From assembly GCA_043775825.1 (NCBI GenBank), contig JAYVRX010000088.1, positions 10,598 to 74,597 of the forward strand: 64,000 bases of DNA, written 5' to 3'. Under the pieces are notes generated by a model, which did not search any database, was not told the origin of the DNA, and saw only the letters and a program-made list of their open reading frames with translations. This DNA comes from Deinococcales bacterium (GTDB lineage Bacteria > Deinococcota > Deinococci > Deinococcales > JAAFIG01). A program made the translations under genes and the position numbers. Positions 23,995-41,073 of this stretch are shown piece by piece (position 1 is the stretch's first letter; the number at the start of each line of letters is the position of its first letter).

Positions 23995-23997
23995 CAT

Positions 23998-24630: not shown

Positions 24631-24852
24631 TGTGGTTCATCCGAACGATCCCTTTGGTTTGACTCGAGGGTCGGATGCCTCCAAGCAAAGACTAGCACCA
24701 ATTTCAAGAATTGCCTGTGTGATTCAAGGTTGGCTAAATACTGCATGAGAAAAACCAGGTTCGGTTCAAGCTGGCGAGAACGATAGCTTATCCTTTTTCA
24801 ATTGGTGCGGGCGTCATAACGATTTCTCGCACTCGAGATGTAACATAAACGT

Positions 24853-25455
24853 ATGGCTTACAGCAATTTTACCCTTCAAGAAGTCCTCAAAAAGTTCAGC
24901 CTCAAGTTGGAGGAAGGTTGTGTATTGTTTCCAAATGTCGAACCTCGAGCAGCATCGGCACTTTTAACGGCTTGGCTCGAGCAAAAAATTCCGTTGGCAT
25001 TGGCACTTTCGACTGAAAAAGCCCGTAGCGAATTTATTATCGCGCCAATTCTTGCCGAAGTGCGCGAGCAGTTGGGAAAACGATTTTCGTTGTTTTCTGG
25101 AATTGATTTTACGGTTGATACAAGCCAAGGTTTAAACGGCGAGTGTGACTTTTTATTCTCAAAGTCCCCAGAGCAACTGGTTTTGCTTGCGCCAGTGATT
25201 AGTGTTGTAGAGGCGAAAAACGAAAGTTTTAGAAACGGCTTGGCTCAAGCTTGCGCCGAAATGATTGCCGCTCGAGTTTTTAATGAACGTGAGGGACATC
25301 CACTCGCAAGGGTTTTCGGGGCGGTCACAACGGGCGATGATTGGCAGTTTTTGATGCTCGAGGGAAACGTTCTATTTGTGGACAAAAAGCGCTTTGATTT
25401 GGATCAGCTTCCCGAAATTCTTGGGATTTTTTGTTATATGCTCGAGACGGCTTAA
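24853..25455 (+). CDS. Hypothetical protein with PD-(D/E)xK nuclease-like motif
   Basis: 200 aa. ECDFLF ... VISVVEAKNE fits the D...(D/E)xK restriction-endonuclease-like core. Recognition is by motif only. Confidence 0.4.
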   Translation: MAYSNFTLQEVLKKFSLKLEEGCVLFPNVEPRAASALLTAWLEQKIPLALALSTEKARSEFIIAPILAEVREQLGKRFSLFSGIDFTVDTSQGLNGECDFLFSKSPEQLVLLAPVISVVEAKNESFRNGLAQACAEMIAARVFNEREGHPLARVFGAVTTGDDWQFLMLEGNVLFVDKKRFDLDQLPEILGIFCYMLETA

Positions 25456-25463
25456 AAGTTCAA

Positions 25464-26114
25464 TCATGAACCCTTAAAGGGTTCAATCACAATATGGTCG
25501 CCCTCGAGCTTGGCAAGTTCGGCGGTGTCACCCTCGCGGGCTTGCATTCCCTTGATGCTCGAGCTATCGCTGGCTCGGGCGATGGCTTGCCCAATCCGAA
25601 TTTGCGGGCTGGCAATCTTTTGCGCCCAAATGATCGCATCTTTGCGCCCCGTCGCGCCCGCGTGCGCCAAACCGCGCAGTGTTCCGACCACGATAATGTC
25701 GCCGCCCGCCACCAATTCCACGCCAGAGTTGACATCACCCAGCACAATCACGCTGCCAGGGGTTTCTTTGCGCGTTCCAGAACGAAGCGTTCGGGCAATG
25801 ATTTCGGTGCGACCACTGGAGGGTACTTCCTGCACTTGCGCGACCACCGTTTCGATTGTAGCTGGCGTATTTTGATTGGAAGCTCGAGGAGGTCTGAAGC
25901 TCGAGATCACCCCTCCAGCGCTCAGGATTGCCTGCATGACTGTTTGAACCACATCACCGGCAATGACACCGCCAAGCTCGAGTTCGACCCGTTCGGACAA
26001 GAGTTGAGCACGAGACTCTAACGCACTCGAGACGCTTTCTTTGGTATCAACAGGCTCGAGCAGAATGCTCAAACCCCCACTTGTGCCGCGCAGTTTCATA
26101 ATTGGTTTTACCAT
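25464..26114 (-). CDS. minC: Septum site-determining protein MinC
   Basis: C-terminal beta-helix repeats VIVLGDVNSGVELVAGGDIIVVGTLRGLAHAGATG. The start is ambiguous (26147, 26114 or 26099). Confidence 0.75.
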   Translation of the reverse strand: MVKPIMKLRGTSGGLSILLEPVDTKESVSSALESRAQLLSERVELELGGVIAGDVVQTVMQAILSAGGVISSFRPPRASNQNTPATIETVVAQVQEVPSSGRTEIIARTLRSGTRKETPGSVIVLGDVNSGVELVAGGDIIVVGTLRGLAHAGATGRKDAIIWAQKIASPQIRIGQAIARASDSSSIKGMQAREGDTAELAKLEGDHIVIEPFKGS

Positions 26115-26184
26115 GCAAGGCGCGGATTTGGTGTACCAGATTGACATGAAGCTCTAAAGTTTGGATGCAGTACAACCCAAAGCT

Positions 26185-27981
26185 TTAGCGGATAACACGA
26201 CCTTGCTTGTCGAGTTTAATGTTCCAGTACGCCGCCATGACTTTTTTCACGGCTGGCAGTGCCACGCCCGAACCTTCAACGCCGTTCTCAAAAAAGGCAA
26301 CCACAACCAAATTGGGGTTATCAAAAGGACCATAACCCATATACCAGGCATGGTCACGGTTATGACCTTGTGGTGATTGTGCCGTTCCAGTTTTTCCAGC
26401 CGTGACAATCGGGAAAACATTCGCGCCCAAGACTTCTTTAGCGGTGCCGATACGGGTGGTCATCAACATGCCCTCTTTGAGCATTGACCAGTATTTGCCC
26501 GAAATTTGGGTCATGGGTTTTGGTGGTACGGGTTTGTTGTCAATGGCTTTGATGACTGTTAATTCGGGGCGTTTACCATTGTTGACGATGGTTGCCAGCA
26601 TTCGTGCGATTTGCAAAGGATTTGCCCGAAGGCGTTGACCAATCGAGTAATTAAGCGGCACACCATTGTCCCAGGTTTTCTTAGCCCGCTCCAAAGCAAC
26701 TGTTGGCACTTCATCAAACTTTTCACCGAGAAGCTCGATACCGCTCGATTGCCCAAAACCAAAGTCTTTGGCACGCCTGGCAATGTCGTTGACAAACCGT
26801 TCTGGTCCGTAACTGACCGCCGATTGGTAATACCAGGTATTGCACGAATTTGCGATTGCCGCTCGAGCGTCCATAACACCCATATTCCTAAACCGATTCC
26901 AGTTTTTCCAGAAACGACCACCGTAAAACCAACTGCTGTAACACTGAAATACCCGATTGCCAAACCCATTCTCGAGCAACGTGCTGGCGGTCACCAATTT
27001 AAAGGTCGAACCTGGCTCCCAGACGTTGACCATGCGGTTGAACATGGGTTTGTACTTGGTGTCCAATTGGGCTTTGATGCCTTCTTTGGCGGTGGGTTTG
27101 ACCGAAAACCAATTCGGATCGTATTTGGGTCCAACCGCGAACGCCAACACCTGACCCGTTTTTGGATTTAAAGCCACTATCGCCCCCCTGGCGGATTCGA
27201 CAAGTGGTATACCGTGTTGTTTATTCAATCGGTTTATTTTCTCTTTGGCTTCAGTGATGGCTTGTTCGGCGGCACGTTGCAATTTGGGAATAATGCTGAG
27301 GGTTACGGTCTTGCCCCTGATCGCCTCTTTGACCGTTCGTTCGGAAACCACCCGACGCGCGGCATCAACCTCAACATTTTTTAAACCGTCCTTTCCTCGC
27401 AAAATATCGTTCAACCCAAACTCGAGACCGGCTTTGGGCAGAATATCGGTCAGTGCCGCTCCAGCTTCGACATCTTTGGCGCTGGCTTGGGACATGTAAC
27501 CCAACAAATTTCCTGCCATGCCACTAAGGTAGATCCGTTCAACCCTAGAGCGAACTTCGATCACGCTCTCTTGACCCGCAAGCCATTCCTGAAGCGGTAA
27601 AATGCTGTCCTGCGGCACGTCTTTGGTCAAAATGGCAGGCTCAAATTTGTTGGTCACCGTTGGAAGTGGCAATTTTATTTTTGCCAACCGTGCAATACGG
27701 TCTAAGAATTTAACCTCGCCGCCGTGGTAGATAAGTTCAATCGCTTTGCGGTTGGTTGCCATGACCGAACCGTCCGCCGCATGAATATCGCCCCGAACGG
27801 CACGAATAACGGTCAAATCGGTGGTGTTATTCTCGCTCGAGGTGACAAATTCGTAATGCCGCACCACTTGTAAGTAATATAAACGCCCCAAGAACACCAG
27901 CAAAACCAAGCTCATAAACAAAGTCACCCGAAGGATTGGATTGCTCGAGATTTTAATCTTTTCGTTATCGCGTTGATTCAT
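26185..27981 (-). CDS. mrdA: Penicillin-binding protein 2 (elongasome transpeptidase)
   Basis: 598 aa with an N-terminal TM segment, SxxK motif GSTFKLV, SxN-like region and KTGTA motif. Sits directly downstream of mreCD. Confidence 0.85.
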   Translation of the reverse strand: MNQRDNEKIKISSNPILRVTLFMSLVLLVFLGRLYYLQVVRHYEFVTSSENNTTDLTVIRAVRGDIHAADGSVMATNRKAIELIYHGGEVKFLDRIARLAKIKLPLPTVTNKFEPAILTKDVPQDSILPLQEWLAGQESVIEVRSRVERIYLSGMAGNLLGYMSQASAKDVEAGAALTDILPKAGLEFGLNDILRGKDGLKNVEVDAARRVVSERTVKEAIRGKTVTLSIIPKLQRAAEQAITEAKEKINRLNKQHGIPLVESARGAIVALNPKTGQVLAFAVGPKYDPNWFSVKPTAKEGIKAQLDTKYKPMFNRMVNVWEPGSTFKLVTASTLLENGFGNRVFQCYSSWFYGGRFWKNWNRFRNMGVMDARAAIANSCNTWYYQSAVSYGPERFVNDIARRAKDFGFGQSSGIELLGEKFDEVPTVALERAKKTWDNGVPLNYSIGQRLRANPLQIARMLATIVNNGKRPELTVIKAIDNKPVPPKPMTQISGKYWSMLKEGMLMTTRIGTAKEVLGANVFPIVTAGKTGTAQSPQGHNRDHAWYMGYGPFDNPNLVVVAFFENGVEGSGVALPAVKKVMAAYWNIKLDKQGRVIR

Positions 27982-28090
27982 GCTAAAACCTACATTCTGG
28001 CTCGAGATTTCGTAAGCTTAAGGTAACCTTACTTAAGTTTTGCTGAGAAAACTGTCGTCAATTCTGGTTTTTTGAAGCTTCAGCTTGAAT

Positions 28091-28639
28091 TTACAACAAT
28101 TGTTCTTCGTTGTTCAAAGTCCGCCCAAAAGCCCAATTTGCCAACCAGTATACAAAAGGAGCAAAAACCAGTGTGGTGATGATTTCTGGAATCATGATCC
28201 TTAAGATCGAATCGCCAGTGATAAACCCTTTGCGAGTCCAATAATTAAAGACAATAAAAATAAACCATTTTGAAAGCATCGCTGACAGAACAACCATTGC
28301 CTGGTTAAAACTGGTTTCGGTACTTAGAAAACGCCTAACCGTAAAACCGACAACCACCGCTGCCGCCAGTCCAGCCGCATGAAAACCAAAGGCTCCCGCG
28401 CCAATCGCATCTTGCAACAAACCAATGGCGTAGCCCAAACCTAAACCCCACATTGGACGAACTCGAGAAGCCAAAGTCAAAGTGGCGAGCAGAAATAAAT
28501 CTGGTGGTGTAATCGTTGGGACAAGCGCGTAGAACGCGCCTTGTAAGCCCCAAACAAGAAAAACGAAAAGGAATGGTTTCAAGTGTAACCTTTCAAAATT
28601 CTGACACAACATCAAGGGCATGGCGCCGCTCAAAATCAT
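28091..28639 (-). CDS. mreD: Rod shape-determining protein MreD
   Basis: 182 aa polytopic membrane protein located between mreC and mrdA. Confidence 0.65.
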   Translation of the reverse strand: MILSGAMPLMLCQNFERLHLKPFLFVFLVWGLQGAFYALVPTITPPDLFLLATLTLASRVRPMWGLGLGYAIGLLQDAIGAGAFGFHAAGLAAAVVVGFTVRRFLSTETSFNQAMVVLSAMLSKWFIFIVFNYWTRKGFITGDSILRIMIPEIITTLVFAPFVYWLANWAFGRTLNNEEQLL

Positions 28640-28658
28640 ATTTTACGCCCAAAATCGG

Positions 28659-29438
28659 CTATGGCAAACTGAGAATAAAGACTTCTTCTAAAGCGCTCGG
28701 GTCGACAAAGGGTTTCACCTCGAGCGTTAACCCGAGCGTGTCACCTCTTGAGGCAATGCGTTTGACCACCAGACCAATTTGAACTGTTGGAAACGCTCCG
28801 CCCGCAAAACCGCCCGACAAGACTTTCTGTCCAACTTTGACGTTGGAGCCTTTAAAATCTTCAACCCTCAAAATTCGACCCGCAATACCGCGTCCAAGCC
28901 CACGACCTTGTTTTTTGGTACTTGCAACGGTTGCACCAACCCGAAATTCTGGATCGGTCACGGTTTTAATAAGTGCCGTGCGTGCCGCAACCTCTTGCAC
29001 AATACCGACCAAACCCGACGGAGTCGTGACCGCCATTCCAAGTTGTACCCCATCTTGTTCGCCGAGCGCCACCATAAGCTGCGAAACCAAACCATCGTTC
29101 TTATAAGAAATTACACTGGCAATCGCAAACACCCCAGGCGATTGATAACGCCGAATTTTCGCGGCAGCCTCGAGCTTATTGACTTCCTGCTCGAGTTGCA
29201 CAAGTTTGGTTTGGCTTGTGCCAAGTTGATTTTTCAGGGTTTTGTTCTCGATACGCAAATCGTTTTCAAAGGCGACAGTGTCCACCGCATTTTTGGCGTT
29301 TTGGGCAAGTTGATAAAACATGCCCGTGAACGGCGCAATGCTGGCTGCCAGCGCAAATGGCGCTGGCGGCACAAAACGCGTCGAAACCAACGAAACCAGC
29401 ATCAAAATACCGAACACAAGCCAGAGTCTCGAGTTCAT
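28659..29438 (-). CDS. mreC: Rod shape-determining protein MreC
   Basis: N-terminal TM segment MNSRLWLVFGILMLV, a coiled coil (NQLGTSQTKLVQLEQEVNKLEAA), then beta-barrel domains. The ORF is open to 29483. Confidence 0.8.
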   Translation of the reverse strand: MNSRLWLVFGILMLVSLVSTRFVPPAPFALAASIAPFTGMFYQLAQNAKNAVDTVAFENDLRIENKTLKNQLGTSQTKLVQLEQEVNKLEAAAKIRRYQSPGVFAIASVISYKNDGLVSQLMVALGEQDGVQLGMAVTTPSGLVGIVQEVAARTALIKTVTDPEFRVGATVASTKKQGRGLGRGIAGRILRVEDFKGSNVKVGQKVLSGGFAGGAFPTVQIGLVVKRIASRGDTLGLTLEVKPFVDPSALEEVFILSLP

Positions 29439-29472
29439 AATCCACCAAATTGTGTACTCAGCCCCAAGCGCA

Positions 29473-30072
29473 TCAATCTGCACCCACGACTTCCGAATTT
29501 ACCCAGGGCAGCAACTCGAGGTTGAGGCTGTGCGTCAACTCGAGCATCCTTGAAATTGGTAAACCCACCACGTTAAAAAAGTCACCCTCGATTTTTTCGA
29601 CCAGCGCCATGCCCATCTCTTGAATACCGTAACCGCCGGCTTTGTCCAAGCCTTCGCCAGAGTTTGCGTAACCCAGAATTTCCTGGCTCGAGAGGTCACG
29701 GAATTTTACGCGGGTGCGTTCAAAACCGAGGGCTTGGGCGGTTGGCGTCAGGATGCAAACGCCCGTGAAGACCTCGTGCCAATTGCCAGACAAAGAGCGA
29801 ACGAAATCGGCATTCTCGAGCTTGCTGACGGGTTTTTGCAAGATTTGACCTTCAAACGCCACCACCGTATCGGCTGCCAAAATGACCCGATCAGGCTCGA
29901 GCAATTGAACGGCTCGAGCTTTTTTATTCGCCAAGAATCGCACCAAAGTTTGCGGGTCAGGTTCAGGGCTGTTTTCGTCCACGTCCGCGCTGCGAACGCG
30001 AAACCGGACACCCAAACGGGTTAAAAGTTCTTTGCGGCGCGGACTGCCCGACGCCAGAATGATTTCTGTCAT
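29473..30072 (-). CDS. maf: Maf-like nucleoside triphosphate pyrophosphatase
   Basis: MTEIILASGSPRRKELL ... GAYGIQ-like GGYGIQE. The ATG at 30072 was chosen over the upstream ORF extension. Confidence 0.8.
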   Translation of the reverse strand: MTEIILASGSPRRKELLTRLGVRFRVRSADVDENSPEPDPQTLVRFLANKKARAVQLLEPDRVILAADTVVAFEGQILQKPVSKLENADFVRSLSGNWHEVFTGVCILTPTAQALGFERTRVKFRDLSSQEILGYANSGEGLDKAGGYGIQEMGMALVEKIEGDFFNVVGLPISRMLELTHSLNLELLPWVNSEVVGAD

Positions 30073-30224
30073 TGCTACCTTCAAATGGGCGTGCCCAGGA
30101 GTTTTCATGTGGTTGCCCAACATCGGGTTTAGTTTAACGCTTTCAGATGAAGCTTGTCTCACCTTGATAGGATCACTTCAGCTTCTGCGCACTTTAAGAA
30201 CAAAAATTCTGACAATTCAGCACC

Positions 30225-30253
30225 TTGACACCAACGCACCACTGCACCATAAT
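30225..30253 (+). promoter_or_regulatory. Sigma70-type promoter of vapBC, predicted leaderless transcript
   Basis: TTGACA (30225-30230), a 17-nt spacer, then CATAAT (30248-30253). The vapB ATG begins 7 nt after the -10 element. Confidence 0.45.
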
Positions 30254-30259
30254 AAACCT

Positions 30260-30487
30260 ATGAGACTCAGTGTCAATCTTGAACCCGATTTGTACGCCGT
30301 GGCAAAATCACTTGCCAAAGCCGATGATGTGTCATTGAATGCCTTAATCAATCAAAAACTGCGTGACGCGCTATTTGGTCAAACGCAACCAACACAAACC
30401 CACCTGAAAAATGGGCTTCTGGTCAGCAGTTCAAAAGTGAGAGTGACTCGAGAAATGGTGATGCAAGCCTTGGAAGAAGATGAATGA
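30260..30487 (+). CDS. vapB: Type II antitoxin, VapB-like (RHH/CopG-type)
   Basis: 75 aa, MRLSVNLEPDLYAVAKSLAK..., with an acidic tail. Overlaps vapC by 4 nt (ATGA). Confidence 0.6.
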   Translation: MRLSVNLEPDLYAVAKSLAKADDVSLNALINQKLRDALFGQTQPTQTHLKNGLLVSSSKVRVTREMVMQALEEDE

Positions 30488-30882
30488 CTTATTTAATTGA
30501 TGCCAACGTTCTCACAGCATTGCACAACGAAGCCAACGATGATTTTTTACGGGCGCACGAATGGTTTTCTAAGCTTGGAAAAAATCAATTCGCCACCTGC
30601 GCCATCACCCAAGGCGGCTTTCTTCGGACGCATCTGATTTACTTCCCAAGCGACGGCGTGGCAGCCGCTTTTGAGAAAATAAAAGTTTTGACCGAAAATC
30701 CCAACCATGTTTGGTGGGGAGATGACCTGTCATACGTTCAAGTTGACCCAACACGGCTTCAGGGACGCAAACAAATTACCGACGCCTGGTTAGCCGAATT
30801 GTGCCGCGTAAAAAAAGGAAAAATTGCGACTTTTGACAAAGGGCTTTCGGTGTTCCACGCCGATGTGGCGGTTTTGCTTTAA
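30484..30882 (+). CDS. vapC: PIN-domain ribonuclease toxin VapC
   Basis: 132 aa with the N-terminal YLIDANV acidic motif and C-terminal ITDAWLAELC...IATFDKG. Confidence 0.8.
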   Translation: MTYLIDANVLTALHNEANDDFLRAHEWFSKLGKNQFATCAITQGGFLRTHLIYFPSDGVAAAFEKIKVLTENPNHVWWGDDLSYVQVDPTRLQGRKQITDAWLAELCRVKKGKIATFDKGLSVFHADVAVLL

Positions 30883-30924
30883 CCTGGCGGCAAAAGTTAA
30901 AATACAAGTGTTTTCGTCACTCGA

Positions 30925-32295
30925 GTGTCACAGCTTGGACCTAAACTAACTCAAATGCTCCTGCTCGAGTTCGGCGATGCGCTTGCCGTGATGGCTTGCG
31001 GAATCGCAGCAGCCCAAACCCTGGGTTTGCACCCCATCGGTTGGGTGGTTTGCGTGTTGTTTGGTCTTGCGTCTTGGCAGTTCAAACGCACCCGTTGGTA
31101 CGGTTTAACGCTTTTGTGGTGTCCTGGCATCATCGGGTTTTTAGCCACCAACAACGATCCTTTAACCAGGGCTTACGCGGCAATTCTGGGAATGCTGGGC
31201 TTTTACGCGATCTGGTGCGTCTTGCAAGCAAGGGATGAACACTCGAGCACGGGGTGGTGGGCGGCTGTGCTGTTGGTGGTTTGGCAACCCAGCAGTTTTG
31301 CACTGTTGGGCATCACATTTCTGGCAGCCCAAGCCACCACCCGTTGGCGCTCTCAACTTTCTCCAGCTCGAGGAGCAATGCAACACGGCAGCCTACAACG
31401 TTGGTCGGGTGTGGTGATGCTGGCGTTGGTCGTTTCTGGCTTAAGTTTGTTGCTGCCGCCGCCAGCACCCTGGCGTGTGCAAGATATTTTGCTACCAAGG
31501 CTCGAGTTACCAGCACCCAAAACCAGTGTCTCATATCCTCAAGCCGATTTCAGCACCAAGGTCAAACCGTTTGAAGTCAAAAGCTTTGATCCTCGAGCCA
31601 TTGTGGTTGGCATTTTGTTGCTCGGCGCGGTGATGTTGTGGCAATCGCAGGCGCGTTCGACAAAGGGACGGGTTTTGGGGTCGGATACTCAGGTCAAGAA
31701 AAAACCCAAGGCGAAATTTGATTGGGTGCTGGTGTTTGTGCTCGCCAGCGTTTTGGTGATGTTATTTGCGTTTTGGACGATTAAAACCCTCTCGAGCAAC
31801 GTAATTCCGATTCAAATCCCAAGTTTGCCAAGTTGGTTCTCGAACATGTTAATTGTTGTTTTTGTTGCAGGCTTAATGATTTCATTGGTGCATTGGATTC
31901 GGGTTTACCTGACAAAACACGCCCTCAAACCAATCGATATCATTGAGTTTCCAAGCAAGAAGCAAAAAAATCTCGAGCTTCCAGAAAACCGTGTCCGAGC
32001 CGCTTACGCCATGTGGTTGCATTTCTTGGAAAGCCTCGAGTTGCCCCGAGAAAAAGTTGAAACACCCTTCGAGTTTTCAAGGCGCGTTCATGTCCATCAC
32101 CCAAACTTGCGCGAGTCCACGAACGCCTTGACCCAAGCTTACGAGCGCGTGCGGTACGGCTCGAGTATCTTGGAATCGGATGCCCTAAAAGCCGAGGAAG
32201 CATTGCACGAATGGCGCTTAAGTGTTGCAGCGACACCAGCCGATGACCGTGTTACAAGCTTGACACTCGAGAAACACGTCCGATTGCTAGACTGA
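30925..32295 (+). CDS. Polytopic membrane protein with C-terminal DUF4129-like domain
   Basis: 456 aa with multiple TM segments. The C-terminal segment RVRAAYAMWLHFLESLELPREKVETPFEF...AYERVRYG resembles DUF4129 (from memory). Confidence 0.55.
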   Translation: MSQLGPKLTQMLLLEFGDALAVMACGIAAAQTLGLHPIGWVVCVLFGLASWQFKRTRWYGLTLLWCPGIIGFLATNNDPLTRAYAAILGMLGFYAIWCVLQARDEHSSTGWWAAVLLVVWQPSSFALLGITFLAAQATTRWRSQLSPARGAMQHGSLQRWSGVVMLALVVSGLSLLLPPPAPWRVQDILLPRLELPAPKTSVSYPQADFSTKVKPFEVKSFDPRAIVVGILLLGAVMLWQSQARSTKGRVLGSDTQVKKKPKAKFDWVLVFVLASVLVMLFAFWTIKTLSSNVIPIQIPSLPSWFSNMLIVVFVAGLMISLVHWIRVYLTKHALKPIDIIEFPSKKQKNLELPENRVRAAYAMWLHFLESLELPREKVETPFEFSRRVHVHHPNLRESTNALTQAYERVRYGSSILESDALKAEEALHEWRLSVAATPADDRVTSLTLEKHVRLLD

Positions 32296-32302
32296 GCACA
32301 CT

Positions 32303-33706
32303 TTGAACGCTGTCACAGAGCACCTCGAGCCGATACAACCTTTAAGGGATGCTTTGTGGGTGCTGGTTTTTACGGCATTGATCGCATCGGGTTGGTTGAA
32401 TTGGTTGCCGCTTGGCGTGGTGATTGCCGCCGTGATTTTGCCATTTTTGATTCGTCGCAACGCCAAAACGCAAATGTTCGCGCCTTGGGCAAGCGTTTAC
32501 GCTGGCGCGAGCGCTTTTTTGATGCTGCCACTGAATTTTTCAAACTTACTCGAGCGACTTTCTTGGATGGCACTGGGAATTTTGCTGGCATTCCTGATCG
32601 GTTTGGCATTTGATGGCATCCGCGAGCGTAACCATTTCGCGTGGCTGGCGGGTTTAACCTTGCTGATCCTGAACCCAAGTGCGACGTCTGTGATTGGCGT
32701 GATAGGGCTTTGTGTGCTTGGTGCTCTTCAGGCTCGAGCGTCCAGAATTCGGGTTGGTGTGCAGTTTCAAAACTGTTCTGGCATGGTTGTGCTGGCAGTT
32801 GTGGGTTTAACGATAGCGGCATTTAGTATTTTGCTGACGCGTCCAGCAGAAATTCAATTCAACAACGCAACCATGCCAGTTTCAAAACCCAAAGTAGAAA
32901 CAAAACCTAAAACCACCGACTCGAGCCTTGAAACCACAAGCTCAGGTCGCTCGAGCGTGAAAAAAGTTCAAAGCCTTGATTCTGGATTGCAGAATGCTTT
33001 GATGTTGGCGAATTTTGCGCTTTTGCTGGTTATGATGGCATTGCTTTTTGTATTGCTGCGAAATCGAACGCAAACCGCCAAGGGACGGCGCAAACCCGAA
33101 CTTTCAGAATTGATTCCGTTGCTCGGTGCATTCATCGTTTTGCTGGCATTGTTCGTTTGGGCGAGCACACCACCGCCTCGTCTTGAGGGCTTAAATAAAC
33201 CAAGAGAAATTCAGAGCGCAAGCCAAAATTCATCTCGAGACAAACCAACTTTGCCGCCCGAAACCAAGCTCGAGCAAACCAATCGTTCAAGCCCAATGTT
33301 GACGTTACTGATGCTCTTGGTTGTGATGGCGGCAGCGTACTGGGCACACAGAATCACTCGAGAGAAACTCGGAAATTCAATCCCAGAAGAACCCGAAACC
33401 AACAGCAACTCGAGTTTCAAGAAACAAATTCAAGCCACCAATCGAGTTCGAGAAGCGTATCGGGTCTTTCTCGAGCTTTGCCACGCGCAAGGGGTCAGAC
33501 GTGCGAACGACCAGACTTCGCTCGAGTTCGCGGCATGGGTTGGAACACTTTTCCCAGACTCGAGCATTGACGTTGAAGAATTGACCAAACTCTATGAACC
33601 CGTGCGTTACGGGCAACTCAGCGACGAAACTGGCGCACTCGAGGCAGAAGGTATTGTTGAGGCACTCAAACAAAATTTCAAACCCGAGCCTTTAGAGGAG
33701 AAATAA
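32303..33706 (+). CDS. Polytopic membrane protein with C-terminal DUF4129-like domain (paralog)
   Basis: 467 aa with the same architecture. The C-terminal segment is NRVREAYRVFLELCHAQGVRRANDQTSLEF...LYEPVRYG. Confidence 0.55.
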   Translation: MNAVTEHLEPIQPLRDALWVLVFTALIASGWLNWLPLGVVIAAVILPFLIRRNAKTQMFAPWASVYAGASAFLMLPLNFSNLLERLSWMALGILLAFLIGLAFDGIRERNHFAWLAGLTLLILNPSATSVIGVIGLCVLGALQARASRIRVGVQFQNCSGMVVLAVVGLTIAAFSILLTRPAEIQFNNATMPVSKPKVETKPKTTDSSLETTSSGRSSVKKVQSLDSGLQNALMLANFALLLVMMALLFVLLRNRTQTAKGRRKPELSELIPLLGAFIVLLALFVWASTPPPRLEGLNKPREIQSASQNSSRDKPTLPPETKLEQTNRSSPMLTLLMLLVVMAAAYWAHRITREKLGNSIPEEPETNSNSSFKKQIQATNRVREAYRVFLELCHAQGVRRANDQTSLEFAAWVGTLFPDSSIDVEELTKLYEPVRYGQLSDETGALEAEGIVEALKQNFKPEPLEEK

Positions 33707-33707
33707 C

Positions 33708-34637
33708 ATGATTCAAGAATTTGGAAACCGCATCAAACAAAACGTTGCCAAAGTAATCGTCGGAAAAGATGACACCCTCGAGTTTCTGCTGGCTGCCGTG
33801 CTGGCGGGCGGTCATGTGCTTTTAGAGGATGTCCCTGGCACGGGCAAAACCATGCTGGCTCGAGCGGTGGCGGCATCGTTGGGGCTTGACTTCAAACGCG
33901 TGCAATTCACCCCAGATTTACTACCGAGCGACATTACGGGCGTCAGCGTTTACAAGGGCACAGGTTTTGAGTTTCAGGCGGGTCCAGTCTTTACCAACGT
34001 CTTGCTGGCGGACGAGATCAACCGCGCCACGCCCAAAACCCAATCGGCGCTTTTGGAGGCGATGAGCGAAGGACAGGTTTCCGCCGATGGCATCACGCGC
34101 CCACTGCCAAACCCGTTTATTGTGATTGCCACCCAAAACCCAATCGAAATGGATGGCACATACCGATTGCCCGAAGCGCAACTGGATCGTTTTCTGGTGC
34201 GTTTAAACGTCGGTTATCCAGATCAAAACCAAGAACTGACCATGCTCGAGCGGCTTCAAGGTGAACATCCGATCTCGAGTTTGGAAGCCGTAACGGGCGA
34301 TACCAGCTTGCTCGAGGTTAGAAAACTTTCAAGACTGATTTACCTCGAGCCTGAACTGCGCGAATACATTGTCAAACTGGTTCATGCCACCCGTCACCTT
34401 GACGCCACCTACCTTGGCGCGAGTCCTCGAGCCTCACTGGCATTGCAAGGCGTGAGCCAGGGTTTGGCGGGACTGGCAGGAAGGAAATTTGTCACGCCCG
34501 ATGATGTCAAACGTGCCGCCGTTCCCGTGTTGGGGCATCGCTTGATGCTCAAAGCCGAAGCCAGATTAAAAGGTGTGACCCCAGAAAAACTGGTGAAAGA
34601 CATTCTCTCGAGCGTGGCAGTTCCGGTTGAAAAATAA
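33708..34637 (+). CDS. MoxR-family AAA+ ATPase
   Basis: 309 aa with Walker A EDVPGTGKT, Walker B LLADEINRA, and the motif FIVIATQNP. Confidence 0.85.
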   Translation: MIQEFGNRIKQNVAKVIVGKDDTLEFLLAAVLAGGHVLLEDVPGTGKTMLARAVAASLGLDFKRVQFTPDLLPSDITGVSVYKGTGFEFQAGPVFTNVLLADEINRATPKTQSALLEAMSEGQVSADGITRPLPNPFIVIATQNPIEMDGTYRLPEAQLDRFLVRLNVGYPDQNQELTMLERLQGEHPISSLEAVTGDTSLLEVRKLSRLIYLEPELREYIVKLVHATRHLDATYLGASPRASLALQGVSQGLAGLAGRKFVTPDDVKRAAVPVLGHRLMLKAEARLKGVTPEKLVKDILSSVAVPVEK

Positions 34638-34659
34638 TTCGATGCGCTAGACTGTCACC

Positions 34660-35205
34660 ATGATCTCCGAGAAGCGAATGACCCTTGAAGAATACCTCGA
34701 GTTTGAAAAACACTCCGAGCTTCGTCATGAGTTCACAGATGGCGTACTGCACGCGATGGCAGGAGAAACCAAACGTCATGAAGAGATTGTTTTGAACATT
34801 GTCGAAGCGCTGCGTCCAATTGCCAAGACAAAAGGTTGTCGGCTTCAAACCAAAACCATTCAATTACGAGTCTCGATCAACCGATACCGTTACCCTGATG
34901 TGATGATCAACTGCATCCCAAACGATGATTTGAGGCTCGAGGAAACACCCTGCTTTCTGCTTGAAATCATTTCTGAAAGCAGTGCGGATACGGACAGCAA
35001 CAAGAAATTAGCCGAATACACCCGTATTCCAAGTGTGCAACGGTATGTGCTGATTGAACAACATTCCAAACTCGCCATTGTTTACAAACGTCACAATGGC
35101 GTTTGGCTGGTCGAAACCCTTGAAGAGGCAGGCGAAATTGAGATCCCCTGCCTCGATACTGTCTTGAGCCTAGAGCAGATTTATGCTGGACTCAAGTTTT
35201 CCTGA
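34660..35205 (+). CDS. Uma2 (DUF820) family endonuclease
   Basis: 181 aa with the pattern EYLEFE...E...G......HE.I......YPDVMI....D.......P.LLLEIISESS...D...K...Y. Confidence 0.75.
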   Translation: MISEKRMTLEEYLEFEKHSELRHEFTDGVLHAMAGETKRHEEIVLNIVEALRPIAKTKGCRLQTKTIQLRVSINRYRYPDVMINCIPNDDLRLEETPCFLLEIISESSADTDSNKKLAEYTRIPSVQRYVLIEQHSKLAIVYKRHNGVWLVETLEEAGEIEIPCLDTVLSLEQIYAGLKFS

Positions 35206-35960
35206 ACGCTATTCGCCTTCACCAACAACCAAGCCTTGACATCCAATTCTTTGGCAAAATGCGCCACCGGCACAACATTAGGAAGCACAATCCCGATCTG
35301 TTCTGCCATCGTATTCTCGAGGATTTGCGCTTCGCAAGCCTGCAACGACCAGGGTTGATGCAAAATATCACCACGAAAAACCGTTCCTCGAACATCAGAG
35401 CTGAATAAGCAATAGCGTTCGGTTAACCAATGCTCGAGCGTGCCTGGCACGGCGTGAAAGACTTCACCAACGGGTTTGTACTTGGCTTTGAAGCTAGCAG
35501 GTGCTGCATTGCGGTGCGTGCGAACACTCGAGTAATCAAACCAAACGTTTTCAACTCGAGATGACATTTTCGCGTCCATGTACGGCAAATGAAATCCAAC
35601 CCGAGCGCCACGAACCGCCAGCGGATTCTCGGCATCGAGACTAAAAAACCAAACGCCAGAATGCACGCCGTCCGTGACATACGTTCGCAGGTTCAACTCG
35701 AGAAACGCATCCGTGCCAGGAATCGGCGGCAAGCCTCGAGCGTGAATTTGATTCATGCGGAACGGCACAACGCCCAACCAGGCTTGACCTTCAAACGTCT
35801 GAATGGTCAAACCCTTGGGAATGAATTTCTCAAGGCTGGCGGCTGGGACGGGGTAATGCAGGAAAGCCAGATCGAGCCAGCGCATCTGCATGACCCACGG
35901 GCGATCTAATTTCATTTGGCGTCGAGGAAACGGGCGCGGAGTTCTGGGGTCGGCAACCAA
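35181..35960 (-). CDS. DUF2071 (YqjF-like) family protein
   Basis: 259 aa. WLDLAFLHYPVPAASLEKFIPKGLTIQTFEGQAWLGVVPFRM matches my recollection of the family N-terminus. Confidence 0.55.
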   Translation of the reverse strand: MVADPRTPRPFPRRQMKLDRPWVMQMRWLDLAFLHYPVPAASLEKFIPKGLTIQTFEGQAWLGVVPFRMNQIHARGLPPIPGTDAFLELNLRTYVTDGVHSGVWFFSLDAENPLAVRGARVGFHLPYMDAKMSSRVENVWFDYSSVRTHRNAAPASFKAKYKPVGEVFHAVPGTLEHWLTERYCLFSSDVRGTVFRGDILHQPWSLQACEAQILENTMAEQIGIVLPNVVPVAHFAKELDVKAWLLVKANSVQENLSPA

Positions 35961-36334
35961 CAGGCTTCACGTTTGCCAAAAATATTGTAGCGATAACGTC
36001 CAATTATTTTGTAGACGGCATCGCGCAAGAATTTTGGCACAATTTTGAATGCACTCAACCAAGACCATTTTGCAGGCAAGCGCTTCATAATCTCGAGCAC
36101 CGCATCAGACCGAGTAAAAACCTTGTCACCATCAATCAAAACCACAGTATCCATCGCTGGCATTCGATGCAACTCGAGCAACTTCTGACCAGCCTCGGAT
36201 TGCTGCGAGGCGAATTGAAACACCCCAGCTTGGTCATTTTTAATAATAAATTGCACCACACCGTTGCAGAGGTTGCAAACCCCATCGAACAAAACGATTG
36301 TCTTGCCAGCGCCATTCACGAACTTAGAATACAC
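35912..36334 (-). CDS. DCC-family thiol-disulfide oxidoreductase (DUF393)
   Basis: Motif LFDGVCNLCNG. The ORF is open to 36463 but there it overlaps the divergent aminopeptidase gene. A GTG at 36334 or 36319 is the likely start. Confidence 0.6.
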   Translation of the reverse strand: MYSKFVNGAGKTIVLFDGVCNLCNGVVQFIIKNDQAGVFQFASQQSEAGQKLLELHRMPAMDTVVLIDGDKVFTRSDAVLEIMKRLPAKWSWLSAFKIVPKFLRDAVYKIIGRYRYNIFGKREACWLPTPELRARFLDAK

Positions 36335-36391
36335 AACCCGAGTTTTTAAAACCAGAGTGAGAAGTCCCCCAAATGGCGTTAAACTGCAACT

Positions 36392-37483
36392 ATGAACGAT
36401 CCGATTCTGAAAAAATGGGCTGACCTGCTCTGCGATTACTGCTTTCAAATTCAAGCTGGACAAAGTTTGATGCTTGACGCCAGCAGCACAGCCTTGCCAC
36501 TAGTCCGCGAACTTCATAATGCGCTGCTGATACGCGGCGCGTACCCAATTTTAAAACTCGAGTACACCGAACAAGAATCCGACTTTTATCAGAACGCCAC
36601 AGATGCAATTCTGGACAAGATTTCTAGCGCTGAAATCGCACAAATGCAAGCCATTGATGCATTCTTGGCGATTCGTGCCAGCACCAACACGGCAGCCCTC
36701 TCGAGCGTTGACCCTGAAAAACAAAATCGTGTCAGGCACGCCAACAGCGAGTTGCGCAAAGCCAGAGAAGACAAACCTTGGTGTGTCACGCTGTACCCAA
36801 CCCAGGCTTACGCCCAAGACGCAGGCATGAGTTTGGAGCAACTCGAGCAATTTATGTTTGGCGCAATGTTCTTAGACCGCCCCGACCCTATTGCCGCCTG
36901 GGGCGAAATTCGTGCCATGCAAGCCGAACTGATTAAAAAACTCGAGAAAGCCAAAATCGTCAAACTCGAGGCGAACGGCACGGATTTGACGCTTGAGGTT
37001 ACAAACCGAATTTGGCGCAATTCTGACGGAAGGCGCAACATGCCAAGCGGCGAGGTTTTCACAGGTCCACTCGAAACCAGCGCCAACGGCGCGGTATTTT
37101 TTGGCATTCCCAGCATGGTGAACGGTGTCGAGGTCAGCAATGTTAGGCTCGAGTTTAAGGGCGGCAAAGTGATTGCCGCCAGCGCCGAAAAAGGCGATGC
37201 TTACCTGCAACGCGCCCTCGAGACGGACGAAGGCTCGAGGTTTCTGGGCGAACTGGGCATCGGCACGAATTTTGGCATTCAACGCGCGATTAAAAACATT
37301 TTATTCGACGAAAAAATTGGTGGCACGGTGCATCTGGCGCTCGGCAACAGTTATCCCGAAACGCTCGGTACGAACAAAAGCGCCCTGCACTGGGATTTGA
37401 TTTTCGACATGCGAGAACCTGCAGGTGGTGGACGGATTTTACTGGACGGGAATGTATTCGCTGAAAACGGGAAATTTATCTAA
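36392..37483 (+). CDS. Aminopeptidase, M29 (AmpS/PepS/aminopeptidase T) family
   Basis: 363 aa with an N-terminus similar to PepS-type enzymes and C-terminal metal-ligand regions (GIGTN...HLALG...HWD). Confidence 0.8.
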   Translation: MNDPILKKWADLLCDYCFQIQAGQSLMLDASSTALPLVRELHNALLIRGAYPILKLEYTEQESDFYQNATDAILDKISSAEIAQMQAIDAFLAIRASTNTAALSSVDPEKQNRVRHANSELRKAREDKPWCVTLYPTQAYAQDAGMSLEQLEQFMFGAMFLDRPDPIAAWGEIRAMQAELIKKLEKAKIVKLEANGTDLTLEVTNRIWRNSDGRRNMPSGEVFTGPLETSANGAVFFGIPSMVNGVEVSNVRLEFKGGKVIAASAEKGDAYLQRALETDEGSRFLGELGIGTNFGIQRAIKNILFDEKIGGTVHLALGNSYPETLGTNKSALHWDLIFDMREPAGGGRILLDGNVFAENGKFI

Positions 37484-37522
37484 CTCGAGATTCTTAAATT
37501 GACCAAGGTGTAAGATACAAGA

Positions 37523-38023
37523 ATGTCACTGCCGTATGATTACCTCATCACCGAAGCTGAACGTTTTAACGTCAAGCTCGAGATTATTACTGGGGCAACA
37601 GTCTGGGAAGCCAGCCCAGTTTTCAAACATCAATGGGAAGTAGATCGTATTCGAGCATCTGTTCGTCGCCTCGAGTCAACCTGTGAATGTATCACCACCG
37701 CCGATACCTTGTTTAAATTCCCCGATGATTCACTGAAGCGCCCTGACATTGCTGTGCTTCGCACCATGCCCGACCTTGAAACTGCGGACATTGCACTCGA
37801 GTTAATTCCGACGGCAGTGGTCGAGATTATTTCTAAAAATTACGAGTACAAAGACCTTGTGCTCGCACCACCGTTTTATTTATCGCAAGGTGTGCAAGAT
37901 ATTCTGATTTTCAACCCAGCAGACAAATCTGTTCTGCATTACCGACCCGATCTCGAGCAACCAAAAACCTACATTTCACCGATTACGCTGACCCTCGAGT
38001 GCGGCTGTGAAATTACGATTTAA
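37523..38023 (+). CDS. Uma2 (DUF820) family endonuclease-like protein
   Basis: 166 aa with RPDIAVL ... PTAVVEIISKNYEYKD ... YLSQGVQDILIFNP. Confidence 0.6.
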   Translation: MSLPYDYLITEAERFNVKLEIITGATVWEASPVFKHQWEVDRIRASVRRLESTCECITTADTLFKFPDDSLKRPDIAVLRTMPDLETADIALELIPTAVVEIISKNYEYKDLVLAPPFYLSQGVQDILIFNPADKSVLHYRPDLEQPKTYISPITLTLECGCEITI

Positions 38024-38048
38024 GCTCGAGTGGTGCTAACATTTCGAT

Positions 38049-38633
38049 ATGACCCTAGCTTTTGATGGTTCAAATCAGAACATGAATCCAGAAATTCAGC
38101 GTCGTAAATTCACGCTTGAAGAATTTGAACGCATGAGTGATCTGGGATTGATCTCAGAACAACACGCGGAATTGTTGAATGGGGAGATTTTCGTGAAAGG
38201 AATGCAAAGCGGCAGACACGCTTATGCCATCACCACGCTCGCAGAAAAAATGAACTCCTTATTTCAAACTCGAGCTTCTATCGCTTTCCAAGTACCCTTG
38301 ATTTTGCTTGCGCCACCACCAGATTTTGTCGAACCCGACGTTTTGGTACGCAATGCTCCAGCCACACAATACGCCACCCGAAATGCCAATGCAGAAGATG
38401 CAATTCTGGTTGTCGAAGTCAGTGATTCCACCCTCGAGCGTGACCAAACCGATAAATTAAAAGCCTACGCCCGAAATGGGATTCTCGAATATTGGATTTT
38501 AAATTTGCACAGCAACCAACTCGAGGTTTACCGCGAACCAAGCGGCGAAGAATACTTGTTTATTCGCAAATACAAAGCTGGTCAAGCAGTTACTGCGCTC
38601 GAGTTTCCAGATTTGCTGCTCGAGTGGTGGTGA
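38049..38633 (+). CDS. Uma2 (DUF820) family endonuclease
   Basis: 194 aa with FTLEEFERM...ELLNGEI...EPDVLV...ILVVEVSDSTLERDQTDKLKAYARNGILEYWILN. Confidence 0.75.
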   Translation: MTLAFDGSNQNMNPEIQRRKFTLEEFERMSDLGLISEQHAELLNGEIFVKGMQSGRHAYAITTLAEKMNSLFQTRASIAFQVPLILLAPPPDFVEPDVLVRNAPATQYATRNANAEDAILVVEVSDSTLERDQTDKLKAYARNGILEYWILNLHSNQLEVYREPSGEEYLFIRKYKAGQAVTALEFPDLLLEWW

Positions 38634-38671
38634 AAGTCACTCGAGACTACAAAGATAATTTTAGGCTGCAA

Positions 38672-39607
38672 TCACGCAGTTGTAACGTATTCCCAATAAT
38701 TTGAATTTGGAACGAGAGTACATTGATTGACCAAAAAGATGCGTTCCATAGGAATATTTCCAACAAAAGTTTCGCCTCTGTAACGCAACGCACCCATTTC
38801 CTTCAGTTTTTGAAGTCCTAAATGGTGAATTTGGCGACCTAAATCTTGCTTGCGAAGTTCAGGCGCAATACCGCAAAACATGCCCCCTTGTCGTTGTTTG
38901 GGTTGGGTGTACCTGGGCATCAAAAGCCCAATTTCTTGATTGTTTTGATGAACAATAAAATTTTGCGCCGCGCCGCCAATTCGCTCGAGGAATTCTCCCT
39001 GAGCGATTCGTTCTTCAATCACGCCAAGCGGATCGTCTAAATCCTCTGCGGCGGTTGGGTCAAACGAGTTGCTTTGAATCAATTCCAGTAGTTTTGCCGC
39101 TCTTGACAGGCTTTCTTCGGCATCCGTGATGTCTTCTAGCGACAAATCTGTCCGTAGAGGCTCGAGGTTCTGAAGGTCACGCCCATAGCCTTGATTTTGA
39201 AATGAAAGCCTCAAATTGAATTTCTTCGGTGATTCAGGCAGCACGAATCCAACCAATTCTTCGTCAAACGCAACCCGCATTGAAGCCGAATTTTTGGCTG
39301 ATAAATTCAACAAGGTCTGGACAATCACTTCGATCACTTCGGGTCGTTGATTCGGCACAGAAATATTTGGACTGCCAACAGTTGATAGTAATTTTTTGTC
39401 GCCCAAAGTATCGATTTTCCACTGAAATATTCCGATAATCTTACTATTTTCAACAATACACAAAACTTTTTTGGGATCAAATTTTCCACTTTTGAGGTTA
39501 TCTAACATCTTTTCCGTTTTTTCTTGCTTTTCTTTTACACTTAAATCCTGAAATCTAAATTCGACGTAGGCAGCGATTGTATTTTCATCACAAATTTGTA
39601 CGTTCAT
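38672..39607 (-). CDS. Hypothetical protein, possibly GNAT-like
   Basis: 311 aa, low GC. The C-terminal part vaguely resembles acetyltransferase motif A (QDLGRQIHHLGLQKLKEMG). Its start overlaps the upstream esterase stop (ATGA). Confidence 0.35.
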   Translation of the reverse strand: MNVQICDENTIAAYVEFRFQDLSVKEKQEKTEKMLDNLKSGKFDPKKVLCIVENSKIIGIFQWKIDTLGDKKLLSTVGSPNISVPNQRPEVIEVIVQTLLNLSAKNSASMRVAFDEELVGFVLPESPKKFNLRLSFQNQGYGRDLQNLEPLRTDLSLEDITDAEESLSRAAKLLELIQSNSFDPTAAEDLDDPLGVIEERIAQGEFLERIGGAAQNFIVHQNNQEIGLLMPRYTQPKQRQGGMFCGIAPELRKQDLGRQIHHLGLQKLKEMGALRYRGETFVGNIPMERIFLVNQCTLVPNSNYWEYVTTA

Positions 39608-40626: not shown

Positions 40627-40630
40627 CCTG

Positions 40631-40661
40631 GCAACAAAAAACCCTCGAGATTCTCGAGGGT
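40631..40661 (-). terminator. Rho-independent terminator after rpsI, stem built from two CTCGAG copies
   Basis: On the minus strand: ACCCUCGAG-AAU-CUCGAGGGU (9-bp stem) followed by UUUUUUGUUG. Confidence 0.75.
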
Positions 40662-40680
40662 CTAAAAATGCAAATCTGTC

Positions 40681-41073
40681 TTAACGCTTGGAGAATTGCG
40701 GCGCACGACGGGCTTTTTTCAGACCGTACTTCTTGCGCTCTACTTCCCTTGAATCGCGGGACAACAAACCGGCTGGTTTGAGTTTCACACGGTTATCGGC
40801 ATCAATACGCACCAAAGCGCGAGCCAAACCAAGTTTGATCGCGTCGGCTTGACCGGTAGGTCCGCCGCCTTCGACGGTGATGGTCGCGTCAAAACGACCC
40901 GCCGCACCCGTTACACGCAAAGGCTCGAGGGCTTGAACGGCTTTGATGATGCCACGGAAGTAATCTTGGAAATCTTTACCGTTAACGGTAATGCGACCCT
41001 CGCCATTGCGAAGAAACACGCGAGCAACGCTGGACTTGCGGCGTCCTGTGCCGTAAAAAGATTCAACGGTCAT
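40681..41073 (-). CDS. rpsI: 30S ribosomal protein S9
   Basis: 130 aa with [13 protein letters not shown] ... [19 protein letters not shown] ... [19 protein letters not shown]. Confidence 0.95.

Follow-up and report, generated by a model that had tools for sequence, protein, structure and literature searches.

The Hexamer CTCGAG as a Hyperabundant Word in All Coding Phases and Between Genes of an Uncultured Deinococcales Lineage

The locus described here raises a question: why should a single six-base word, CTCGAG, recur approximately once per 150 bp through a stretch of bacterial chromosome, and is its recurrence dictated by the encoded proteins or imposed on the DNA that encodes them? The stretch, referred to as the window, comprises 64,000 bases of contig JAYVRX010000088.1 from a Deinococcales assembly, and it carries 430 copies of CTCGAG (6.7 per kb), a palindrome in that it is its own reverse complement. 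Having examined this window (~64 kb) together with ~55 kb from relatives (about 120 kb of sequence, not whole genomes), we consider it likely that CTCGAG is a lineage-specific hyperabundant word, resembling the highly iterated palindromes (HIPs) of cyanobacteria and imposed on double-stranded DNA whatever that DNA encodes.

Abundance and Coding Phases of CTCGAG

The features on which the following counts rest are these:

1..64000, no strand: the CTCGAG population, 430 copies (hexamer counts, shuffles and spacing)
9180..10133, + strand: GNAT acetyltransferase gene with 9 CTCGAG, all in the CTC-GAG phase (phase counts)
30925..32295, + strand: DUF4129-domain gene 1 with 10 CTCGAG, 5 as Leu-Glu, 2 as x-Arg(CGA)-x and 3 as x-Ser-Ser (Pfam, phase counts)
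32303..33706, + strand: DUF4129-domain gene 2 with 13 CTCGAG, 6, 3 and 4 in the same order (Pfam, phase counts)
33708..34637, + strand: MoxR AAA+ ATPase gene with 8 CTCGAG (compared with six outgroup orthologs without the motif)

CTCGAG is by far the commonest hexamer of the window, the runner-up among those that do not overlap it reaching 82 copies. Base composition predicts 16.7 copies and dinucleotide-preserving shuffles of the window gave 11.9 ± 3.5 (maximum 20), corresponding to an enrichment of 26- to 36-fold. The excess extends throughout the window (16 to 36 copies per 4 kb). Spacing is near-Poisson, or close to random (mean 149 bp, median 103, coefficient of variation 0.89), and with an index of dispersion of 0.84 the copies per kb are distributed a little more evenly than a Poisson process would give. 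The repeated unit is the bare hexamer and not a longer repeat, because its flanks show only weak symmetric preferences and are unrelated among the 59 copies that lie wholly or partly outside open reading frames (ORFs). Extended forms of the motif, GCTCGAGC (46 copies) and AACTCGAGTT (5 copies), are no commoner than independent flank preferences predict. An interspersed element resembling repetitive extragenic palindromes or miniature inverted-repeat transposable elements was likewise rejected, there being no shared flanks and no conserved unit beyond the CTCGAG core.

An initial annotation, made from the letters of the window, had drawn attention to the two DUF4129 genes, each of which encodes that domain C-terminally (Pfam E = 3e-11 and 3e-9) and both of which precede the MoxR gene. 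It had given 23 copies for the pair (30925-33706), read as CTC-GAG in 11 cases, nCT-CGA-Gnn in 5 and nnC-TCG-AGn in 7, and nine copies for the GNAT gene, all Leu-Glu. A recount returned exactly these figures; the peptides quoted (LLEFG, RLELP, KLEQT, HSST, LSSN, RSSV, PARGA, DPRAI and ITREK) were all recovered, and the contexts quoted for the GNAT gene are present.

For the window as a whole, genes were called as greedy, non-overlapping longest ORFs, which occupy 91% of it. A few of the short ORFs called in the initial, GC-rich 8 kb are probably not real genes, and restriction to long ORFs leaves the phase proportions unchanged (63/13-14/23-25% in ORFs of at least 200 or at least 300 amino acids). 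Within ORFs there are 375 copies, comprising 232 CTC-GAG, 59 nCT-CGA-Gnn and 84 nnC-TCG-AGn, a spread over all phases, and not just CTC-GAG, that extends to the entire window what the annotation had described in single genes. Two null models were applied, both operating within genes: a synonymous-codon shuffle, which expects 37.6, 4.3 and 6.6 copies in the respective phases, and a codon-order shuffle, which expects 13.3, 2.6 and 3.6. The observed numbers exceed the first in all three phases and the second by factors of 17, 23 and 23; both shuffles are conservative, because codon usage is already inflated by CTCGAG itself. The predominance of the Leu-Glu phase reflects the commonness of leucine and glutamate and not a preference for that phase, since the enrichment factor is about equal in all phases; the null expectation for Leu-Glu is already four to five times that for either of the others. 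Among sites at which the word is synonymously possible, CTCGAG is carried by 73% of those encoding LE, 44% of those encoding [SPTA]-R-[VADEG] and 43% of those encoding x-S-[SR]. Intergenic DNA is the densest compartment, with 58 copies in 6.3 kb (9.2 per kb, ~40 times the expectation from composition).

These data bear directly on a cause at the level of protein or translation, such as selection for Leu-Glu or for the codon pair CTC-GAG. Such a cause would accord with the 62% of genic copies that stand in the Leu-Glu phase and with the nine of nine in the GNAT gene, but it is scarcely credible, and the evidence from phase, intergenic DNA and the EL control rules it out: the two other phases are enriched as strongly as the first (23-fold), intergenic DNA is densest and its copies are conserved (see below), the reverse dipeptide EL is not enriched, and in a distant relative, L004, the motif is kept at one spot in a different phase. 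The results support a pressure for CTCGAG that acts at the DNA level and is blind to coding, as the annotation had proposed; the enrichment in all phases over the codon-order shuffle and the density of intergenic DNA speak for that reading.

The pressure is also visible in codon usage. CTCGAG spells 232 of the 316 Leu-Glu dipeptides (73%), as compared to ~4% predicted from codon use outside the motif, where CTC and GAG are minority codons (12% of Leu and 30% of Glu, respectively). CGA makes up 17% of arginine codons overall and 12% outside the motif, and 59 of the 192 CGA codons lie within it; together with synonymous switches between AGG and CGA among members of the clade (described below), this bears out the recruitment of CGA that the annotation had noticed. 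In dipeptide content, LE shows the highest ratio of observed to expected in the window (2.48), with the reverse control EL at 0.94. The annotation had anticipated a shift of the proteome toward LE, SS, SR and xR dipeptides, which was found for LE, SS (1.89) and RV (1.47) and not for SR (1.01) or AR (1.09). The shift in LE is evident also against relatives, at 16 per 1000 in the window and its clade versus 7.3 in other Deinococcota:

LE/EL per 1000 dipeptides, window: 16.2 / 5.8
LE/EL per 1000 dipeptides, clade relatives: 16.6 / 6.1
LE/EL per 1000 dipeptides, other Deinococcota: 7.3 / 5.7
LE/EL per 1000 dipeptides, other bacteria: 4.2 / 4.7

These frequencies are pooled over loci and ORF calls in the GC-rich DNA of outgroups are crude, the contrast between LE and EL being the robust part. 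LE, and to a lesser degree SS, is inflated in the proteome as a side effect of CTCGAG, with LE approximately doubled relative to other Deinococcota.

Carriers of the Word and the Fate of Its Sites

A search with the MoxR protein places the window among uncultured Deinococcales known only from metagenome-assembled genomes (MAGs). Its CTCGAG-rich relatives are the loci L001, L002, L003 and L005, with MoxR identities of 94-98%, and L004, at 73%; all five carry 7.2-9.0 copies per kb (27- to 33-fold over expectation). Thermaceae and other Deinococcota, whose MoxR is ~60% identical, have 0.8-2.0 copies per kb (2.4- to 6-fold), a mild excess that is expected for GC-rich genomes favoring CTC and GAG, and 70 other bacterial loci scatter around 1-fold. 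The trait is specific to this clade of uncultured Deinococcales (~50% GC) and older than the split from L004. Five MAGs that stem from different studies and were assembled independently show it, as does one Logan contig, which rules out an artefact of assembly or linkers; the hyperabundant contigs are JANMUC010000342.1, JAYTKL010000233.1, JANXTZ010000019.1, JAYURE010000779.1 and CAXTTL010000273.1. A search for contigs that encode the edge genes of the window returned none for one of them and, for the other, a single contig of 5.4 kb that falls within the window.

Orthologs from outside the clade, which lack the motif, show what stands at the corresponding sites:

MoxR versus outgroup orthologs without the motif: 8 sites compared, same residues at 3
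IspE versus Thermus (PDB 1uek): 10 sites compared, same residues at 3
IspD versus Thermus (PDB 2px7): 8 sites compared, same residues at 3
DUF4129 domain versus outgroup: 7 alignable sites, same residues at 0

Residues agree at 9 of the 33 sites and differ at 24, so that where LE, SS or xRx was already encoded the word has been brought in by the choice of codons, and elsewhere by residue replacement that the protein tolerates. In MoxR, three sites are synonymous (ARA, PRA and LE) and five involve residue changes (for example EE to SS, KA to SS and VE to LE). The comparison with relatives lacking the motif that the annotation had suggested thus returns synonymous and amino-acid-changing substitutions alike. 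The same comparison rules out the notion that the copies are relics of a GC-rich ancestor, that is, CTC and GAG leftovers that escaped a drift to 50% GC. GC-rich relatives are indeed already 2- to 6-fold enriched, mostly in the Leu-Glu phase, but CTCGAG occurs in any outgroup at only one of the eight MoxR sites, outgroups mostly have other residues at the sites, and CTC (12%) and GAG (30%) are minority codons outside the motif; we give this explanation, even when taken together with an assembly or linker artefact, almost no credence.

A scan of viral contigs for dense CTCGAG returned none similar to the window, and most of its matches were compositional (GC-rich, with GAGCTC equally abundant). 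Two contigs had CTCGAG as their top hexamer: L185:1-9722 (IMG/VR 3300018422_000001), with 57 copies in 9.7 kb, a GC content of 0.64 and 0 GAGCTC, and L198:1-14155 (IMG/VR 3300010354_016671), with 73 copies in 14 kb and a GC content of 0.57. Both reach ~17 times expectation, in all phases, and are unrelated to the window; the ORFs of L185 have no Pfam matches. These contigs possibly represent other lineages, or their phages, that bear a milder, independent version of the trait.

The close relatives (L001, L002, L003 and L005) share 83-85% DNA identity with the window and are related by a star-like phylogeny. Copies of CTCGAG in the window are intact in a relative in 82-88% of cases, as opposed to 38-44% (about 41%) for hexamers generally. 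Over all comparisons, the codons CTC, GAG, TCG and CGA are identical in 71-100% of cases inside the motif and in 37-82% outside it. For the two larger comparisons, the respective values inside and outside are 91% and 47-58% for CTC, 96-98% and 61-66% for GAG, 87-88% and 41-55% for TCG, and 79-89% and 37-55% for CGA. Identity at third positions is 0.93-1.00 in the motif and 0.70 elsewhere, and intergenic copies are conserved in 22 of 29 instances, versus ~40% of control intergenic hexamers (p = 1e-4). The loss of existing copies is thereby shown to proceed at a rate several-fold below that of ordinary sequence, and this holds at synonymous and intergenic positions too. All six positions of the word are protected about equally. 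The copies that have been lost differ mostly by single transitions, which are spread evenly over the three positions of the half-site, so that no methylated base can be deduced from them. At two positions of the window, 31440 and 32217, CTTAAG takes the place of the CTCGAG found in relatives, the central CG having undergone C-to-T change on both strands; such states could have arisen if a modified inner cytosine was deaminated, two events being too few for a conclusion.

Protection of existing copies coexists with turnover. When five genomes are aligned over 3.6 kb spanning the DUF4129 genes, 43 columns contain the site in at least one genome: 20 in all five, 10 in four, 7 in two or three and 6 in one. 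Turnover is continuous, with gains and losses roughly balanced. Among the 22 variable coding columns, 7 involve synonymous differences only and 15 include residue changes (DTS to or from DSS, GLS to or from GSS, and FK, FT or QD to or from LE, as examples), and several gains required two to four base changes. Two sites illustrate the synonymous route:

31166..31171, + strand: ACC-AGG-GCT (Thr-Arg-Ala) in the window, ACT-CGA-GCC in L002 and L005, a synonymous three-base switch that creates both the motif and a CGA codon
33357..33362, + strand: a copy read as ACT-CGA-GAG (Thr-Arg-Glu) in the window, with synonymous ACC-AGG-GAA in L001 and L002

Over the greater distance to L004, five of eight CTCGAG positions are shared in the conserved MoxR gene; in DUF4129 gene 2, whose product is 32% identical in amino acids, there are 13 copies on either side and 3 positions are shared, and at one site of this gene L004 keeps CTCGAG two bases over, in a different phase. 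Copy density is shown to be held while positions drift in fast-evolving genes. The DUF4129 proteins are of this fast-evolving kind (window 30925-33706 versus L004:419-1765, 32% identity, with the adjacent MoxR at 73%), and only their C-terminal ~80 residues can be aligned with other Deinococcota.

Two rival explanations have to be weighed against this pattern. One is a neutral, functionless ratchet, in which repair linked to a site-specific enzyme turns near-matches into CTCGAG and restores damaged copies; candidates are repair of the very-short-patch type or a ratchet of methyl-directed mismatch repair, as Elhai proposed for HIPs (PMC4390886). With the model already laid out in that work, a drive that ignores coding phase and is most pronounced under the weakest constraint, a constant density despite positional turnover, a rough balance between 6 singleton gains and 10 single losses in the five genomes, and spacing close to random would all fit it. 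We nonetheless think it unlikely and place it, as the main rival, just behind the mechanism discussed below. Very-short-patch repair should deplete its substrates, and one-mismatch neighbors of CTCGAG are not depleted: the transition neighbors CTTGAG/CTCAAG and TTCGAG/CTCGAA stand at 1.25 and 1.35 times the expectation from composition, and CCCGAG/CTCGGG within 1.25-1.35 times. Many gains, moreover, comprise two to four base changes, which are not easily supplied by a single-mismatch repair bias, and the six positions are protected about equally. Very-short-patch repair at Dcm sites (CCWGG) of E. coli does offer a parallel, in that a pair of site-specific enzymes changes oligonucleotide frequencies across the genome at the DNA level, but there the effect is small and the T:G-derived neighbors are depleted, whereas CTCGAG is enriched ~30-fold and its neighbors are not depleted. 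A word bias of the very-short-patch type was rejected on the same ground, the deamination-product neighbors of CTCGAG being undepleted.

The other explanation holds that the copies are binding sites of an abundant nucleoid or chromosome-organizing protein, their density being kept by selection, as Xu et al. argued for HIP1 (PMC5861425). It draws on the conservation of sites within and between genes, the argument used in that study, and on the slightly more even than Poisson density per kb (0.84). The free positional turnover in fast-evolving genes speaks against it, as does a spacing otherwise near-exponential, which lends no support to a regular structural array (for HIP1 a periodicity of 10-90 kb underpins the architecture argument; PMC5861425), and no candidate protein is known. 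We regard it as improbable.

Likeness to Highly Iterated Palindromes and a Candidate Mechanism

CTCGAG matches the HIP class on every feature tested (palindrome, fold-excess, presence in all frames and in intergenic DNA, and conservation). As with HIPs, it is a short exact palindrome present at tens of times expectation; it occurs in all reading frames and between genes, each compartment being at least 17-fold over its null; and its sites are conserved among related genomes beyond background, synonymous sites included. Over-representation of HIPs ranges from 15- to 300-fold (Xu et al. 2018), as compared to 26- to 36-fold for CTCGAG in the window and 27- to 33-fold in L001-L005. The word is lineage-restricted and lower in recently acquired DNA, as are HIPs; HIP1 has been used to spot genomic islands by its lower density (PMC3025956, PMC3497702). 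HIPs share also a debate over origin and function, between selection and a repair ratchet. From this precedent a phase-blind imposition, the recruitment of CGA and the shift in the proteome were to be expected once hyperabundance had been seen; for CTCGAG they are here quantitatively established.

CTCGAG is apparently an undescribed counterpart of cyanobacterial HIP1 and not HIP1 itself. HIP1 is GCGATCGC, and alternative HIPs in cyanobacteria include GCsGC, rCCGGy and GGCGCC (Elhai 2015) as well as GGGATCCC and CAGGCCTG (Xu et al. 2018). CTCGAG, in contrast, has no GATC or CGATCG core (GCGATCGC occurs 0 times in the window and CGATCG once), is 6 bp long instead of 8, and belongs to the Deinococcota instead of the cyanobacteria. 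Its density of 6.7 per kb, compared with 0.3-2.7 per kb for HIP1 (PMC4390886), is enough to double the frequency of a dipeptide. Searches of the full-text literature, outside subscription journals, brought up no account of hyperabundant CTCGAG in bacteria, which is not proof of absence. That the clade represents an independent second origin of a HIP-type word outside the cyanobacteria, denser than any seen before and rewriting codon and dipeptide content, is a reading to which we give slightly less than an even chance.

If that reading is true, features common to this clade and to HIP1-bearing cyanobacteria could identify the machinery behind highly iterated palindromes, with orphan methyltransferases, competence genes and expanded Uma2 nuclease families as candidates for comparison. 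The function and origin of HIP1 have been debated for three decades, and the tentative connection of HIP1 to methylation-dependent transformation is recent; the same behavior of another word in another lineage would be an independent replicate of the HIP1 puzzle, and whatever accompanied both systems, be it a gene family, a methylation mark or a feature of competence, would be a strong candidate for the mechanism. In addition, the clade illustrates clearly that in nature a pressure on DNA can alter protein composition, with LE doubled and residues at tolerant positions replaced, which is relevant to codon models, to composition-based detection of horizontal transfer and to the reading of "conserved" synonymous sites.

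The pressure acts on a double-stranded word, and is shown to slow loss several-fold and to supply gains while blind to coding, new copies arising through synonymous codon switching (recruiting CTC, GAG, TCG and CGA) and through amino-acid replacement at tolerant positions. An exact palindrome of 6 bp that lacks any extended flank is probably recognized by a DNA-binding enzyme of matching symmetry, the likeliest candidate being a CTCGAG-specific methyltransferase. A cognate, often orphan, DNA methyltransferase that recognizes the word or its core is a feature of the HIP class. CTCGAG might thereby serve as a methylation-marked signal of "self", its abundance raised by biased uptake or recombination of self DNA. 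This ranks first among the mechanisms considered, as a tentative proposal by analogy that is, taken by itself, somewhat unlikely. In cyanobacteria, HIP1 is now proposed to act as a methylated "self" signal of this kind: methylated HIP1 raises transformation more than 100-fold in Synechococcus PCC 7002 (10.1101/2024.09.10.611283), and across the phylogeny HIP1 abundance is correlated with several Type IV secretion system proteins, interpreted by the authors as a link to DNA uptake. The likeness to the methylated HIP1 of that strain, as a short abundant palindrome that could be a methyl-marked "self" tag, is analogy only. Within the order of the window, a preprint with its supplement (10.64898/2026.06.24.734251) reports m4C methylation of CTCGAG in a circular Thermus MAG, its two candidate enzymes having given negative results in tests.

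Deinococcus and Thermus are naturally competent. In Campylobacter jejuni, RAATTY and CtsM reportedly provide methylation-dependent discrimination of self DNA in transformation, and the likeness of CTCGAG to that short, abundant word is again analogy only. The uptake signal sequences of Pasteurellaceae and the DNA uptake sequences of Neisseriaceae, thought to spread by molecular drive (biased uptake and recombination), resemble CTCGAG in being over-represented in coding and non-coding DNA, in biasing peptide content and sitting preferentially where proteins tolerate them, and perhaps in the pairing of some inverted intergenic copies as terminator-like hairpins. They differ in that uptake words are asymmetric, 9-12 bp long, show flank preferences and occur ~1 per kb, whereas CTCGAG is a palindrome of 6 bp at ~7 per kb.

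Several considerations weigh against the proposed methylated self-DNA signal, or against the broader view of CTCGAG as a HIP-like word. Conservation of position does not tell selection apart from repair biased toward keeping existing copies, and the analysis covers the ~64-kb window and ~55 kb of relatives only, not whole genomes. No DNA methyltransferase, restriction enzyme, Vsr or competence gene was found within the 64 kb: motif regular expressions revealed no methyltransferase or restriction gene in the window, and in Pfam scans of 25 window ORFs the sole methyltransferase was a small-molecule Methyltransf_11 protein (the non-syntenic part of L001 is a histidine-utilization operon). A metagenome scan with the unvalidated Thermus candidate methyltransferase gave 80 loci with a median observed/expected ratio of 1.0 for CTCGAG, none hyperabundant, and is uninformative about this clade. 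Thermus, which reportedly methylates CTCGAG, is only 2- to 4-fold enriched, as is typical of GC-rich genomes; methylation alone, if present, is therefore not sufficient. Finally, 6 bp is short for a specific uptake signal.

A further role, as the target of an active restriction-modification system of the XhoI type, was discarded, given that the site is ~30-fold enriched and not avoided while most other palindromes are strongly avoided. This avoidance is marked for GGCC (3 copies, ~286 expected), CTAG (observed/expected 0.15) and CCGG (0.27), and 37 of the 64 palindromic hexamers stand below 0.2 times expectation in the window. GAGCTC, the mirror word of CTCGAG, has 0 copies, and 0 of 119 Glu-Leu dipeptides are spelled GAG-CTC. 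GGCC and GAGCTC are near zero also in L001, L002, L003 and L005; L004 has 11 GGCC in 3 kb, from which it follows that GGCC avoidance is younger than the CTCGAG trait.

A Probable Insertion, Terminator-Like Hairpins and Neighboring Genes

Further features of the window concern DNA that has probably arrived recently and the pairing of intergenic copies:

38632..39612, no strand: a stretch absent from L002 and L005, with a 311-aa low-GC ORF and 3 CTCGAG per 981 bp (alignment with relatives, Pfam)
40639..40663, - strand: terminator-like hairpin whose stem consists of two CTCGAG copies, followed by a T-run
48756..48789, no strand: intergenic inverted repeat TAGAGGCTCGAG...CTCGAGCCTCTA built on two CTCGAG
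61133..61169, no strand: intergenic inverted repeat TTGGTTTCTCGAG...CTCGAGAAACCAA built on two CTCGAG
62575..62602: intergenic CTCGAG pair with extended complementarity (pair analysis)

The stretch 38632-39612 is a probable recent insertion, judging from its absence in L002 and L005, where 7-8 bp join the flanks; its ORF has a GC content of 0.42 and no Pfam match. The flanks carry 16-19 CTCGAG per 2 kb (8-9.5 per kb), and the low count in the stretch is what accumulation in situ predicts, as for HIP1 in genomic islands (PMC3025956). Four intergenic pairs of CTCGAG extend to longer stems; the mean outward extension is 1.08 bp over intergenic pairs as compared to 0.24 bp over coding pairs, the numbers being small.

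Three paralogous Uma2 genes (PF05685, "putative restriction endonuclease") lie within 4 kb, at 34660-35205, 37523-38023 and 38049-38633, and two of the three vary in presence among the close relatives. BLAST, a search that is not sensitive here, returned Uma2 homologs only in loci of the clade among 2.7 Mb. The Uma2 family is strongly expanded in cyanobacteria, the phylum of HIP1.

The first 8.4 kb of the window differ in composition, with a GC content of 0.60-0.62 and GC at third codon positions of 0.68-0.75 versus ~0.5 elsewhere, and contain 37 of the 76 CCGG sites. This GC-rich part (1-8400) ends at a cluster of three tRNA genes (8720-9102), and its features suggest an acquired island encoding an oligopeptide ABC transporter, a family-4 glycosidase and a sugar kinase. 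It is still without GGCC, and its CTCGAG density ranges from 1.7 to 9 per kb, being lowest in the transporter genes.

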